Assembly: GCF_054482595.1 (NCBI RefSeq)
Contig: NZ_CM137008.1
DNA: 64,000 nucleotides
Reading direction: 5' to 3' (one strand)
The stretch's first letter is position 1. Each line of letters begins with the position of its first letter. The position numbers and the translations under genes were made by a program. Under the pieces are notes generated by a model that made no database searches, had not been told where the DNA came from, and saw only the letters and a list, made by a program, of their open reading frames with translations. This document shows positions 3,528-52,870 of the stretch, piece after piece.

Positions 3528-4898
3528 ATGGCTCGTTCTTTTAAAGTCTTATCGCCAACGGCAATCCTCGGGTATGGATTCCCGGAAGAGAGCTTCCGCA
3601 AAGCGATGGCAGAATCGCCCGATCTGATCGCCGTTGATGCAGGCTCTTCCGATCCAGGCCCCCACTACCTCGGGGCAGGCAAACCGTTTACCGATCGCGC
3701 AGGGGTCAAGCGCGATCTGCGCTATATGATCACCGCAGGCGTGCAAAATAATATACCGGTGGTGATCGGAACGGCTGGCGGTTCTGGTGCCGCACCACAC
3801 CTGGAGTGGTGCCGAGAAATAATTCATGAGATTGCCCGGGAAGAGCACCTCTCGTTCTCGATGGCGTTGATCCCGGCAGACGTTGACAAAGCCATCGTCC
3901 ACCAGGCGCTGGATAACGGCAAAATCACGGCGCTGGATTTTGTCCCGCCGTTAACCCACGACGCGATTGACGAAAGTACGTATATCGTCGCGCAAATGGG
4001 CATCGAACCCTTCCAGCGGGCGCTGAAAGAACGCGCGCAAGTGGTGCTGGGCGGGCGCGCTTACGACCCGGCCTGCTTTGCTGCGCTCCCGATCATGCAA
4101 GGCTTTGATGAAGGTCTGGCGCTGCATTGTGGGAAAATCCTTGAATGCGCGGCAATCGCCGCAACGCCCGGCTCAGGCTCTGACTGTGCGATGGGCATCA
4201 TTGATGACAACGGCTTTACGCTGAAGACATTTAATCCGAAGCGTAAATTTACCGAAACGTCAGCAGCTGCACACACACTGTATGAGAAATCCGATCCCTA
4301 CTTCCTGCCAGGACCTGGCGGCGTGTTGAACCTGAAAGGCTGCACATTTAAAGCAGTCAATGACGGCGAAGTCTACGTCAGCGGTTCTAAGCATGAAGAA
4401 ACGCCGTATGCCCTGAAACTGGAAGGTGCACGACGGGTGGGCTTCCGCTGTCTGACCATCGCCGGAACGCGCGACCCGATTATGATCGCCGGGATCGATA
4501 AAATCATCGATGAAGTCAAAACCAGCGTTTCGCGTAACCTGTCGCTCGACGATGACAGCATTCGCATCAATTTCCACCTGTACGGCAAAAACGGGGTGAT
4601 GGGAGACCATGAACCGATGCAAACTGCCGGGCATGAGCTGGGGATTGTCCTTGATGTAGTTGCACCGACCCAGGAAATTGCCAACAGCGTTTGCTCGCTG
4701 GTGCGCTCTACCATGCTGCACTACGGCTATGAAAACCGCATCGCTACCGCAGGTAATCTGGCGTTCCCGTTCTCCCCTTCTGATATCCAGGGCGGGCCGG
4801 TATACGAATTTTCCATATATCACCTGATTGAAGCCAACGACGCTCTGCGTTTTGATTTCCATATTGAACAGGTGACGCCAGAAGGAGTTCAGGCATGA
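3528..4898 (+). CDS. DUF1446 family protein (AtuA-like), function unknown
   Basis: 456 aa; motifs resembling the AtuA/DUF1446 family (GGRAYDPACFAALP..., GKILECAA); starts 4 nt after the mal stop with no promoter space. Family assignment is from memory, not a search. Confidence 0.6.
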   Translation: MARSFKVLSPTAILGYGFPEESFRKAMAESPDLIAVDAGSSDPGPHYLGAGKPFTDRAGVKRDLRYMITAGVQNNIPVVIGTAGGSGAAPHLEWCREIIHEIAREEHLSFSMALIPADVDKAIVHQALDNGKITALDFVPPLTHDAIDESTYIVAQMGIEPFQRALKERAQVVLGGRAYDPACFAALPIMQGFDEGLALHCGKILECAAIAATPGSGSDCAMGIIDDNGFTLKTFNPKRKFTETSAAAHTLYEKSDPYFLPGPGGVLNLKGCTFKAVNDGEVYVSGSKHEETPYALKLEGARRVGFRCLTIAGTRDPIMIAGIDKIIDEVKTSVSRNLSLDDDSIRINFHLYGKNGVMGDHEPMQTAGHELGIVLDVVAPTQEIANSVCSLVRSTMLHYGYENRIATAGNLAFPFSPSDIQGGPVYEFSIYHLIEANDALRFDFHIEQVTPEGVQA

Positions 4899-5212
4899 AA
4901 CAGTCAATTGTCTCACTGGCGCAAGTCATTCGTTCGAAAAATGCCGGACCTTACGAACTGGTTTTAGATATTTTATTTAAAACGAAAGAAAACTATGAGC
5001 GAGTTAAATCATCAGGGCAATTAACCCCAGAACTGATTGCGCGCTTATATCATGTTGAACCTGACTTTATTCATCGTATTGTCTGGTTTGATCCTTCTAA
5101 CGCAGTAAAAATCGTCATGCCACGAGATATTATCTCCGGGAATGTAGGTGACAATGATGTCTATGGTGCACAGCAACATGCACCTTTATTAAATATGAGT
5201 TTCGATTTGTAA
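4895..5212 (+). CDS. DUF4387-like small protein, usual partner of DUF1446/AtuA-like proteins
   Basis: 105 aa; start ATG overlaps the stop of the upstream DUF1446 gene (ATGA), implying translational coupling; motif IRSKNAGPYELVLDI... resembles DUF4387 as recalled. Confidence 0.55.
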   Translation: MKQSIVSLAQVIRSKNAGPYELVLDILFKTKENYERVKSSGQLTPELIARLYHVEPDFIHRIVWFDPSNAVKIVMPRDIISGNVGDNDVYGAQQHAPLLNMSFDL

Positions 5213-5295
5213 AAATCCGAATACTTTTAGCCAACTGACATCCCGTCACTTATTGCAGTTCAACACTTCAGCTATTTGTAAGGTTGTAATAGCAG

Positions 5296-5327
5296 GTAGA
5301 TGCCTGAATCTCTATTCAGGCATCTAC
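5296..5327 (+). terminator. Perfect 14-bp-stem hairpin (gtagatgcctgaat-ctct-attcaggcatctac) followed by a U-rich tract; putative terminator/attenuator
   Basis: Read directly from the sequence between the DUF4387 stop (5212) and the transporter start (5373); arms are exact reverse complements. Confidence 0.5.
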
Positions 5328-5372
5328 TTCTCCTGATTCTGATTTATCGCCGTGCACCTGATGGAGGAAAAA

Positions 5373-6653
5373 ATGAAGACAATAAGTTTAACCACGATGA
5401 TTCTTTTGGCGCTGGTACTTGGAATGATTATCGGCGTAGTGCTCAATAACACTGCTTCACCGGAAACCGCAAAACTCTATGCGCAAGAAATATCGATATT
5501 CACGACGATTTTCTTACGACTGATAAAAATGATTATCGCTCCGTTAGTGGTCTCTACCCTGGTGGTAGGTATTGCTAAAATGGGCGATGCCAAAGCCCTT
5601 GGTCGTATTTTTTCTAAAACACTCTTTTTATTTATTTGCGCCTCATTGCTGTCAATTGCCTTAGGCTTGATAACGGTAAATTTCTTCATGCCAGGTACAG
5701 GAATTAATTTTGTTGCACACGGTGCCGAAACCACCGGAGTGGTCGCGGCAGAACCCTTTACGCTAAAAGTATTTATTTCGCATGCTTTCCCCACCAGCAT
5801 TGTCGATGCCATGGCGCACAATGAAATTTTGCAAATCGTGGTGTTCTCAATTTTCCTCGGCTGTAGCCTGACGGCGATTGGCGAGAAAGGCAGCGCCATC
5901 GTTCACGCCTTAGATTCGCTGGCACATGCCATGTTAAAGCTGACTGGCTACGTCATGCTCTTCGCTCCCCTGACCGTATTCGCTGCTATTTCAGCATTGA
6001 TTGCTGAACGAGGACTGGCAGTTATGGTGAGCGCCGGGATCTTTATGGGTGAATTTTATTTCACCATGTTATTACTTTGGGTGCTGCTTATCGGTCTGGC
6101 CATCGTTTATGTCGGCCCCTGCATCAGACGCCTGACCCGCGCCCTTTCGGAACCCGCCCTGCTGGCATTTACCACATCCAGTTCTGAAGCGGCTTTTCCG
6201 GGAACGCTTGAAAAACTGGAGCAATTTGGCGTTTCCCCCAAAATTGCCAGCTTTGTCTTACCCATTGGCTACTCATTTAATCTCGTTGGATCAATGGCCT
6301 ACTGCTCCTTCGCTACAGTTTTCATCGCCCAGGCCTGCAATATCCATTTATCCATCGGTGAACAAATCACCATGCTGTTGATCCTGATGTTGACCTCGAA
6401 AGGAATGGCTGGCGTACCACGCGCCTCAATGGTGGTTATCGCCGCCACGCTCAACCAGTTCAATATTCCGGAAGCGGGGCTGATCTTGCTGATGGGCGTT
6501 GATCCGTTCCTTGATATGGGGCGTTCCGCGACAAACGTCATGAGCAACGCAATGGGCGCTGCGATGGTGAGTCGGTGGGAAGGCGAACATTTCGGCGAGG
6601 GCTGTCGGGGTAAAGCATTAAAACCCAATGAATCGAACGTTGCTCTGCCCTGA
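5373..6653 (+). CDS. Dicarboxylate/amino acid:cation symporter (DAACS family; GltP/DctA-like), probable glutamate or C4/C5-dicarboxylate uptake
   Basis: Hydrophobic multi-TM translation typical of the GltP/DctA family. I chose ATG 5373 (MKTISL...) because GGAGG at 5363-5367 sits 5 nt upstream; the listed ORF starts at GTG 5352. Confidence 0.75.
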   Translation: MKTISLTTMILLALVLGMIIGVVLNNTASPETAKLYAQEISIFTTIFLRLIKMIIAPLVVSTLVVGIAKMGDAKALGRIFSKTLFLFICASLLSIALGLITVNFFMPGTGINFVAHGAETTGVVAAEPFTLKVFISHAFPTSIVDAMAHNEILQIVVFSIFLGCSLTAIGEKGSAIVHALDSLAHAMLKLTGYVMLFAPLTVFAAISALIAERGLAVMVSAGIFMGEFYFTMLLLWVLLIGLAIVYVGPCIRRLTRALSEPALLAFTTSSSEAAFPGTLEKLEQFGVSPKIASFVLPIGYSFNLVGSMAYCSFATVFIAQACNIHLSIGEQITMLLILMLTSKGMAGVPRASMVVIAATLNQFNIPEAGLILLMGVDPFLDMGRSATNVMSNAMGAAMVSRWEGEHFGEGCRGKALKPNESNVALP

Positions 6654-9025: not shown

Positions 9026-9032
9026 TAACTGC

Positions 9033-9051
9033 GCCTGGCATCCCGCCAGGC
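9033..9051. terminator. Short hairpin (gcctgg-N7-ccaggc) between the convergent stops of the adenosyltransferase gene and the LysR gene; possible bidirectional terminator
   Basis: Inverted repeat read from the sequence; the flanking U-tract is weak. Confidence 0.35.
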
Positions 9052-9058
9052 ACAGGTT

Positions 9059-9964
9059 TTACATCTCCTGCGGTACGACCGATTTCGCCAGCATCCATTC
9101 ACGAAATTGCTGCAAGTGCGGTGAGTCAGACTTCTCTTCCTGCCACGTCATAATAAAACGATTACCGGTACGAATAGGCACATCACAGGGGATCACCATA
9201 TCGCCACTATCCAAATCATGTTGAATAGCGAACCGTGGTAACAGCGCCACGCCGAGATTAGAGCGCACGGCGGCAATCAGCATTGAAAGCAAATCGAAAC
9301 GTGGTCCGTTATTGACCAGCGGACTGCTAACGCCAGATAAAGCAAACCACTCTTCCCAGCCAGTAATACGGGTGCTTTGATGCAGAAGCGGTAACTCAGT
9401 AAGCAGTTCTGCCACTGACAGCTTTTGATCGGACATTGCAAGCAAACTGCCGCTGCATACCGGCAAAATCTCCTCATCAAAGAGATATTCTACTTCCGCC
9501 CAGGGCGCGCAAAAATTTTCGCGCATAATGACAGCATCGTACTCCCGATTAAGAAAATCGCCGTTATTAGCTAAAGAATGAATATTAACAATAATATCGG
9601 GATGTAACTTTGTGAATTCATGTAAATTTGGGATCAACCAGTGGGTACTAAAAGTAGGATTAACGGCAAGTTCAATAACCTGAACCGTAGGCTGCCAGGT
9701 CATAATGGTATTGGTATCGCGTTCCAGCTTATTTAATGTTTCTTTTACTATCCCCAGGTAATACTTCCCTGTATCATTAAGAAAAATGCGTTTTTTAGAG
9801 TGTGAAAATAACGGAGTACGTAAAAATTCCTCCAGCGCACTTACTTGTCTGAATACTGCACTTTGGGTTAACGCTAACTCCTCTGCCGCTCTGGTATAAC
9901 TTTCATGACGTGCGACGACCTCAAAAGTCACCAGCAGTTCCGTTTTAGGTATTTTCCCTCGCAT
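9059..9964 (-). CDS. LysR-family transcriptional regulator
   Basis: 301 aa; N-terminal HTH typical of LysR-type regulators (FEVVARHESYTRAAEELALTQSAVFRQVSALEE) and a C-terminal substrate-binding-like domain. Confidence 0.85.
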   Translation of the reverse strand: MRGKIPKTELLVTFEVVARHESYTRAAEELALTQSAVFRQVSALEEFLRTPLFSHSKKRIFLNDTGKYYLGIVKETLNKLERDTNTIMTWQPTVQVIELAVNPTFSTHWLIPNLHEFTKLHPDIIVNIHSLANNGDFLNREYDAVIMRENFCAPWAEVEYLFDEEILPVCSGSLLAMSDQKLSVAELLTELPLLHQSTRITGWEEWFALSGVSSPLVNNGPRFDLLSMLIAAVRSNLGVALLPRFAIQHDLDSGDMVIPCDVPIRTGNRFIMTWQEEKSDSPHLQQFREWMLAKSVVPQEM

Positions 9965-12666: not shown

Positions 12667-12750
12667 GTGTTCTGTCCATCCTTCAGTAATCGTTATCTTT
12701 TAAACCGTAGACCGAATATTTCGTATCGCTCCCGGGTATTGTCGGTCACC

Positions 12751-12990
12751 CGTAGGCCTGATAAGACGCGCAAGCGTCGCATCTGGCATCGCTTGTCGGA
12801 TGCGGCGCAAGCGCCTTATCCGACCTACATCGGTGCTCCCCGTAGGCCTGATAAGACGTGTAAGCGTCGCATCAGGCATCGCTTGTCGGATGCGACGCGA
12901 GCGCCTTATCCGACCTACATCGGTGCTTCCCGTAGGCCTGATAAGACGCGTTAAGCGTCGCATCAGGCTTCAATTGCCGGAGAAGGCGAT
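12751..12990. repeat. Tandem ~90-bp BIME/REP array (about 2.5 copies) in the sucB-sucC spacer
   Basis: Unit starts at 12751, 12841 and 12931 (cgtaggcctgataagacg...); each unit holds REP-type palindromes (gcctgataagacg / cggatgcggcg...cgccttatccg). Confidence 0.85.
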
Positions 12991-17239: not shown

Positions 17240-17365
17240 GTTACGCCTGATGCGCTGCGCTTATCAGGCCTACGGGTAATGACTTGTAGGCCGGATAAGG
17301 CGTTCACGCCGCATCCGGCACTGGTTGCCTGATGCGACGCTTGCGCGTCTTATCAGGCCTACGGT
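17240..17365. repeat. REP/BIME palindromic elements in the sdhB-sucA intergenic region (which also carries the internal suc promoter)
   Basis: Several gcctgatgcg...cttatcaggcctac and ggccggataaggcgttcacgccgcatccggc palindromes. Confidence 0.8.
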
Positions 17366-38987: not shown

Positions 38988-39290
38988 TTATTTTGTGTGT
39001 ATTACATTCAACACTTGCCCATCTTTTTTCGCTATTAGTATTGTAAAATTTCCTCCTAAAGTCTTCGGTTGTTTTCCCTCGATTTTCCAACAATTATTGT
39101 CATCTGTAATACTATATGGTTTCTGAAATTCTGCTTTTTCTTTCCCGTATACATATTTAATGTAAACATATGATAATTCCAAAGCCATTTCACGACTATT
39201 TACTAAAATTTCCACTGGATTTTCTTTTCCAAATACTTGTTATGATATTGTAAACAATATCATAATAAGTAATATTAGTGAGTTTCTCAT
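38988..39290 (-). pseudogene. Small secreted-protein ORF interrupted by an in-frame TAA at codon 17 (plus-strand 39240-39242)
   Basis: From ATG (39288-39290, minus strand) the frame reads MRNSLILLIMILFTIS-TAA-QVFGKENPVEILVNSREMALELSYVYIKYVYGKEKAEFQK...HTK. A signal-peptide-like N-terminus continues in the same frame across a single stop. Confidence 0.5.
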
Positions 39291-52750: not shown

Positions 52751-52761
52751 GGGCTGAATTG

Positions 52762-52858
<97 letters not shown>

Positions 52859-52870
52859 AGTCATAAGTAA

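Follow-up and report, generated by a model that had tools for sequence, protein, structure and literature searches.

The window analysed here, a 64,000-nt stretch of contig NZ_CM137008.1 (assembly GCF_054482595.1), is Escherichia coli DNA and carries the methylaspartate (glutamate fermentation) gene cluster described by Kronen and Berg (PMC4682846). Between the DUF4387 gene and the symporter gene of this cluster, at positions 5296-5327, lies a palindrome that is a real RNA hairpin under selection, of a familiar kind in a new place. It is conserved as an RNA stem-loop across several enterobacterial genera, while its sequence is not conserved. The structure belongs to the sense strand, has been kept through compensatory changes and is followed by a U-poor tail and by no recognisable promoter. 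Its function can be suggested more tentatively: the preferred reading is that the stem-loop may act inside a single operon as a brake on RNA decay, being a weak terminator at most, and may thereby tune the expression of the upstream relative to the downstream genes.

Structure of the hairpin and its conservation across genera

The two arms of the hairpin are 100% complementary and make up a perfect inverted repeat of 14 bp around the 4-nt loop CTCT, as had been described in an earlier note on this DNA. Its position 83 nt past the DUF4387 stop codon and 45 nt ahead of the symporter ATG likewise agrees with that note, which placed it between the enzyme genes ending at DUF4387 and the transporter-fumD-adenosyltransferase genes. 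The features of the spacer are as follows.

5210-5212, + strand: TAA stop codon that closes DUF4387, with which the enzyme genes upstream end (open reading frame 4895-5212; RefSeq annotation of strain XH990)
5213-5372, + strand: untranslated spacer between the DUF4387 and symporter genes, 160 nt, with homologous spacers at 28 other enterobacterial loci
5294-5295 (5' side), + strand: possible two-pair extension of the stem, A5294-U5329 and G5295·U5328, in the minimum free energy and centroid RNA structures
5296-5309, + strand: left arm of the hairpin, GTAGATGCCTGAAT, equivalent to columns 88-101 of alignment A2, which pair with columns 113-126
5310-5313, + strand: loop CTCT (CUCU in the RNA), from the sequence and the fold
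5314-5327, + strand: right arm of the hairpin, ATTCAGGCATCTAC, from the sequence and an inverted-repeat search
5328-5345, + strand: U-poor, pyrimidine-rich tail, UUCUCCUGAUUCUGAUUU, from the sequence
5363-5367, + strand: GGAGG, the Shine-Dalgarno sequence of the symporter gene; all 29 aligned spacers have the block GATGGAG without change
5373-5375, + strand: ATG of the symporter gene (5373-6653), from RefSeq coding sequence coordinates transferred from L001

The folding energy, a check proposed in the earlier note, bears out the structure: within a 66-nt context the hairpin RNA folds at -25.2 kcal/mol, against a shuffle mean of -12.7 kcal/mol (z = -4.3; 0 of 200 shuffles as low), and the 32-mer by itself at -20.9 kcal/mol. 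As the hairpin is a palindrome, the minus strand folds near-equally (-24.5 kcal/mol); the G5295·U5328 pair is available in the plus strand RNA only. Among the perfect inverted repeats of the window this is the longest, and the chance expectation for a perfect 14-bp stem with a loop of 3-10 nt is about 0.002 in 64 kb (64000 x 8 / 4^14, by hand arithmetic). No second copy of the arm sequence was found in the window, and the hairpin site occupies a single location per genome in 1123 island-bearing genomes among the 5426 complete E. coli genomes scanned.

The junction between DUF4387 and the symporter occurs in approximately 47 Enterobacterales loci (scan of one genome per species), and every lineage with this junction has a stable hairpin in the gap, with energies of -12 to -34 kcal/mol. 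Aligned spacers in which a hairpin of different sequence stands in the same register come from Escherichia sp. MOD1-EC7003, Citrobacter, Enterobacter, Lelliottia, Buttiauxella, Pluralibacter and S. enterica arizonae (example arms: GGCGTGCGTCTGAGC...GCTCAGGCGCACGCC), and the spacer of Trabulsiella likewise contains a hairpin. RNAalifold recovers the hairpin from the alignment. Across the 29 orthologous spacers of alignment A2, 13 of the 16 helix pairs have changed on both sides and 91.9% of the cells are paired, values reached by none of 500 shuffles, while slid partners pair in only 29-40%. The E. coli helix differs from that of Citrobacter by about seven double changes and from that of Escherichia sp. 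MOD1-EC7003 by about five.

The substitutions also indicate the strand. Cells with G·U pairs outnumber those with A·C by 44 to 13 in the hairpin helix and by 50 to 3 in the neighbouring upstream hairpin, and the structure under selection is therefore the RNA of the plus (sense) strand, since such an asymmetry would arise neither from a DNA cruciform or an antisense RNA nor from arm-to-arm correction. Both the sequence and the length of the loop vary (4 nt in E. coli and Escherichia sp., 7-11 nt in the other orthologues), suggesting that the role of the element is structural and independent of a specific loop sequence. The element thus offers a worked example of a single-copy hairpin maintained through compensatory evolution.

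Two observations on the sequences compared may be added. Between window positions 4050 and 5210, the AtuA-family and DUF4387 genes are 93-100% identical to those of Escherichia sp. MOD1-EC7003, and identity falls to approximately 75-80% right past the DUF4387 stop codon, which places a recombination breakpoint at the spacer. A contig labelled as a 'Collinsella sp.' metagenome-assembled genome (JAIJJM010000101.1) shows 97-100% protein identity to the E. coli island and an identical spacer, and is probably a binning contamination.

Probable transcription through the junction and a proposed role in RNA decay

Many complete genomes match the region at 100% identity, and 1124 of the 5426 genomes carry it, O157:H7 included; one of the 1125 records matching it is a plasmid, placing the region off the chromosome at least once. 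According to the RefSeq annotation of the identical region of strain XH990, the hairpin is preceded by glmS, glmL and glmE (glutamate mutase), the methylaspartate ammonia-lyase gene and the AtuA-family and DUF4387 genes, and is followed by a dicarboxylate/amino acid:cation symporter gene, fumD (class I fumarate hydratase), cobO and a convergent LysR-family gene (9059-9964). Kronen and Berg showed the fumarase FumD to be a mesaconase (PMC4682846), while CobO, going by its annotation, should supply the adenosylcobalamin cofactor of the mutase. Since FumD and CobO are both encoded downstream of the hairpin, the earlier proposal that it uncouples catalysis from uptake genes does not hold, and read-through would be physiologically sensible.

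In common with intrinsic terminators and leaky attenuators, the hairpin is a stable stem-loop of the nascent RNA followed by a pyrimidine-rich tail starting with UU, and some genera have a terminator at the same junction: Y. alsatica carries a canonical one (10 pairs followed by TTTTTTCT) and Morganella a terminator-like site, both passing the terminator scan (at least five T in eight bases). Unlike typical terminators, it has a longer stem of 14-16 bp with a more AT-rich base, and no U run directly follows. The E. coli tail UUCUCCUG holds four U in eight nucleotides, only two of them contiguous, while a single U in eight is found both in the tail ACCCUACA, which follows the homologous hairpin in 24 of 27 Citrobacter-group spacers (two more being one base off), and in the tail CCCCUACG of Escherichia sp. 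MOD1-EC7003; none of these three tails passes the scan. With a classical tail/hairpin discriminant, the 14-bp form comes out close to the borderline, d being +9.5 or -10.2 according to the way in which the tail is summed, but the minimum free energy fold takes both U into the stem, so that the tail would begin CUCCUG and d become -14.5 or -38.9. Some termination at the hairpin, perhaps an appreciable amount, is possible in E. coli.

No sigma-70-like site was found between the hairpin and the Shine-Dalgarno sequence, where the earlier note had suggested looking for a promoter, or elsewhere on the plus strand of the spacer, in a promoter scan of low power. In Yokenella and Enterobacter ENT03 the spacers measure 61-64 nt, and are somewhat shorter in truth as the ATG lies a few nucleotides upstream; the core stem ends approximately 20-30 nt from the ATG, and a promoter therefore cannot fit after the hairpin. 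An efficient intrinsic terminator that closes the enzyme operon, leaving the symporter gene, fumD and cobO to their own promoter, would moreover cut fumD and cobO off from the regulation of their own pathway and is, on this evidence, improbable. The boundary between two transcription units that the earlier note had drawn at the hairpin is thus not supported. Among the roles the note had listed, those of a processing or stability element or an attenuator provide the best reading, while an efficient terminator is disfavoured by the U-poor tail.

More U-rich tails tend to occur in Yersinia, Hafnia and Morganella, although the Hafnia tail UUUUACCC does not pass the scan, and in these three genera fumD was not found downstream of the symporter gene within the sequence examined. 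U-poor tails accordingly accompany the presence of fumD and cobO downstream, as expected if read-through is needed there. A Rho loading site was also considered and rejected, the C/G ratio of the E. coli spacer being only 1.0-1.5. Directly 3' of the hairpin, at 5333-5344, stands a tandem repeat CTGATT CTGATT, which is a single CTGATT in the related Escherichia sp. spacer.

The nine genes from glmS to cobO are most likely a single unit, in which an internal RNA structure would set the ratio of enzymes to transporter, and this refines the operon map of a glutamate-fermentation island carried by approximately one fifth of E. coli, including O157:H7. The probable true end of this operon is marked by a second hairpin:

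9029-9055, + strand: operon-end hairpin after cobO, CTGCGCCTGGC-ATCCC-GCCAGGCACAG, then GUUUUAC (sequence, energy and tail score)

The cobO and LysR-family genes are convergent, and their ends, 33 nt apart (9029-9062), have in common this one hairpin followed by GTTTTAC. The AtuA-family and DUF4387 genes (3528-5212) stay beside the glutamate-fermentation cluster across at least 12 genera.

Under the proposed mechanism, the hairpin would form in the sense-strand polycistronic mRNA while RNA polymerase traverses the untranslated spacer of 160 nt. With a 3' tail so poor in U, most polymerases would be expected to read through, and a minority at most would terminate. The stable stem of 14-16 bp would then present a barrier to 3'-to-5' exonucleases and act as a structural insulator, and once the AU-rich tail had been cleaved, or a polymerase had occasionally terminated, the message of the upstream enzymes would be left with a protective hairpin at its end. 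The net outcome would be a ratio of upstream to downstream products that is set after transcription, and not by two independent units.

Hairpins that stabilise mRNA between cistrons include the REP (repetitive extragenic palindromic) stem-loops between malE and malF in E. coli and the hairpins of the Rhodobacter puf operon. The present element resembles these in being a stable sense-strand stem-loop in an untranslated gap of one operon, with no good U-tract after it, and in the conservation of its structure, through compensatory changes, but not of its sequence. Like them, it also stands behind a set of genes whose products may be required in other amounts than the products of the genes that follow. 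It differs in being single-copy and in standing outside the REP family.

Several points weigh against the decay-barrier interpretation. Kronen and Berg (PMC4682846) found methylaspartate ammonia-lyase activity to be undetectable when they grew cells under conditions published earlier; a search of the available literature for the locus tags and regulation of the cluster turned up only this 2015 study and no transcript data. The discriminant scores the E. coli tail like that of the hairpin ending the operon (3.49 and 3.14, respectively, a borderline result). The promoter scan is also blank upstream of glmS, and its blank result in the spacer is consequently weak evidence. The stem shows no special conservation within E. 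coli, as three of the eight spacer polymorphisms fall in it and one of these breaks a pair. The distance from hairpin to ATG has been kept at approximately 41-46 nt (hand count) in E. coli, Escherichia sp. MOD1-EC7003, the Citrobacter group and Trabulsiella, and Trabulsiella retains the whole element ahead of an intact symporter gene despite the decay of its upstream operon. From these last two points, a role tied to the symporter fits at least as well.

The Citrobacter-type spacer and a possible symporter leader RNA

The main rival explanation, somewhat unlikely though it is, takes the hairpin to be one stem of a structured 5' leader of the symporter gene, or an intercistronic regulatory RNA, that controls translation or stability. 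Such an RNA could stabilise the 5' end after processing, serve as a ribosome standby site or insulator, or form part of a switch responding to a ligand, a protein or a small RNA. Like structured leaders and riboswitch-like regulators of transporter genes, the hairpin lies upstream of a transporter start codon, here by approximately 45 nt, and the constancy of this distance in four lineages is in keeping with such a role.

In the Citrobacter group the spacer (L028:6832-7003 and others in A2) is approximately 165 nt long. Its mean pairwise identity is 0.74, compared with 0.54-0.55 at the 4-fold sites of the flanking genes, and it contains the invariant or near-invariant blocks ATTCATGCGGTTGGTCA, CCCTACA and CCGATGGAGT as well as a second hairpin (A2 columns 24-32 with 52-60) that has a conserved loop and covaries in six of its nine pairs. 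As in riboswitch-like leaders, two covarying hairpins are thus combined with invariant unpaired blocks. The helices that would join them lack compensatory support, with one-sided changes only in P3 and none in P1. The latter helix adjoins the Shine-Dalgarno sequence and, on a reading of the alignment, has two of its pairs broken in Trabulsiella. The E. coli copy has lost the second hairpin and most of the conserved blocks, keeping only the hairpin at 5296-5327; identity between the E. coli and C. braakii spacers is 0.44, compared with 0.81 in the DUF4387 coding sequence. The predicted accessibility of the Shine-Dalgarno sequence is unremarkable.

Trabulsiella provides evidence on both sides. 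Its element scores 96.5 bits and stands before an intact symporter gene, AtuA and DUF4387 having been lost, but its spacer identity of 0.55-0.60 is no better than the 0.64 of the adjacent pseudogene remnant. In Trabulsiella odontotermitis (L032:6500-7000) all that is left of the upstream operon is a frameshifted stretch of approximately 120 nt from the 3' end of DUF4387, beside aspC, and this AT-rich remnant contains several promoter-like sites. The E. coli spacer scores 77.6 bits (E = 3e-15) with covariance model R1, a score that is not independent as the window sequence is part of the R1 training alignment.

A scan with Rfam 15 returned only chance-level hits (E >= 2.5) for E. coli 4800-5800 and the C. 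braakii spacer and nothing relevant window-wide; a leader, if present, would therefore be an undescribed one. Judged from its sequence, the Citrobacter-type spacer may be such an RNA. There is only a slender chance that the E. coli hairpin represents the variable stem of a so far undescribed leader RNA, approximately 165 nt long, which in Enterobacteriaceae would precede the symporter gene of the methylaspartate cluster. The features of this putative leader are two covarying hairpins, the invariant single-stranded blocks GCGGUUGGUCA, CCCUACA and CCGAUGGAG, and a conserved distance of approximately 45 nt to the start codon. If it were real, this candidate would regulate uptake in response to a metabolite of the pathway, to a protein or to a small RNA, and E. 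coli would have a stripped-down version; unless it proves so, the practical consequence of the hairpin is small.

Three further candidates in these spacers were rejected. A helix sequestering the Shine-Dalgarno sequence (P1, CCAUUGG with CCGAUGG) shows no covariation and is apparently broken in Trabulsiella, the accessibility predictions being uninformative. A small open reading frame in the Citrobacter spacer, with its ATG in TTCATGCGG, conflicts with loop length differences that are not multiples of three and with the covariation of the stems. Finally, a repeated spacer motif was discounted, as the further matches to GGTTGGTCA and CCGATGGAG in the loci are coding sequence.

Variation within E. 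coli and relation to REP elements and operators

Four spacer haplotypes were distinguished among the island-bearing genomes:

Perfect hairpin: no effect on the stem, approximately 53% of genomes
A5318G (stem): U·G pair, approximately 27% of genomes
A5300G (stem): G·U pair, approximately 13% of genomes
T5325C (stem): A·C mismatch, a few percent of genomes

The independent substitutions in the E. coli population data are too few for a selection test. The spacer type of Escherichia sp. MOD1-EC7003 was not found among the 5426 E. coli genomes, and a metagenome scan returned only the known E. coli haplotypes and one loop variant. In one complete genome, that of strain 100416, an IS1 element is inserted within the left arm (5302/5303), replacing the DUF4387 side of the junction.

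The hairpin bears some likeness to the Z-type REP elements and BIMEs (bacterial interspersed mosaic elements) of E. coli (GTAGGCCTGATAAG...CATCAGGC), which are extragenic, of similar size and have GTAG or CTAC ends and a GCCTGA...TCAGGC stem. The hairpin has GTAG (5296-5299), GCCTGA...TCAGGC(ATC) and CTAC (5324-5327), and elsewhere in the window this spaced motif occurs only in REPs. Unlike in REPs, however, GTAG and CTAC are both present and paired together inside the stem, and the palindrome is perfect. REPs occur in many copies per genome, whereas the hairpin has a single location in each genome and occurs once in the window. With covariance model R2, for which nine of the window's REPs were used, it scores 8.8 and 7.8 bits (E of approximately 1-2), against 24-66 bits for real REPs, and Rfam naRNA4 matches the real REP clusters of the window but not the hairpin. 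Membership of the REP family was accordingly rejected, in agreement with the earlier note, some motifs in common with Z-type REPs notwithstanding. The canonical REP/BIME clusters are located at 12750-12975, 17240-17365, 34706-34821, 52756-52863 and 60176-60348; with their matches to Rfam naRNA4 and ES036 and their REP model scores, they formed the reference set for this comparison.

It is very unlikely that the hairpin is a relic of little function, namely a decayed REP-like or former terminator palindrome kept perfect in some E. coli lineages by template-switch ('quasipalindrome') correction instead of selection. The motifs held in common with Z-type REPs, the undiminished polymorphism of the stem within E. 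coli and the approximately 47% of island-bearing genomes without the perfect form are all compatible with such an origin. Against these stand the chance-level REP model score and the single copy, the retention of pairing through many double substitutions in genera whose synonymous sites are near saturation, and the strand-specific excess of G·U, which is unexpected under arm correction at the DNA level.

Less probable still is a site acting at the DNA level, either a cruciform or an operator for a dimeric regulator such as the LysR-family protein encoded at 9059-9964. A perfect 32-bp dyad in a cluster that includes a LysR-family gene invites such a reading. Operators would be expected to have a conserved half-site and fixed spacing, whereas here the arms covary and the distance between them varies from 4 to 11 nt among the orthologues, and the operator or LysR-box reading was rejected for these reasons. 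The LysR box follows the pattern T-N11-A, whereas the dyad here is T-N12-A; G·U is tolerated and A·C avoided, and no similar dyad was seen on reading the region upstream of glmS. An operator-like appearance is found elsewhere in the window, in a near-perfect 18-nt palindrome at 39234-39271 (TACTTGTTATGATATTGT / ACAATATCATAATAAGTA) with 2 nt between its arms.

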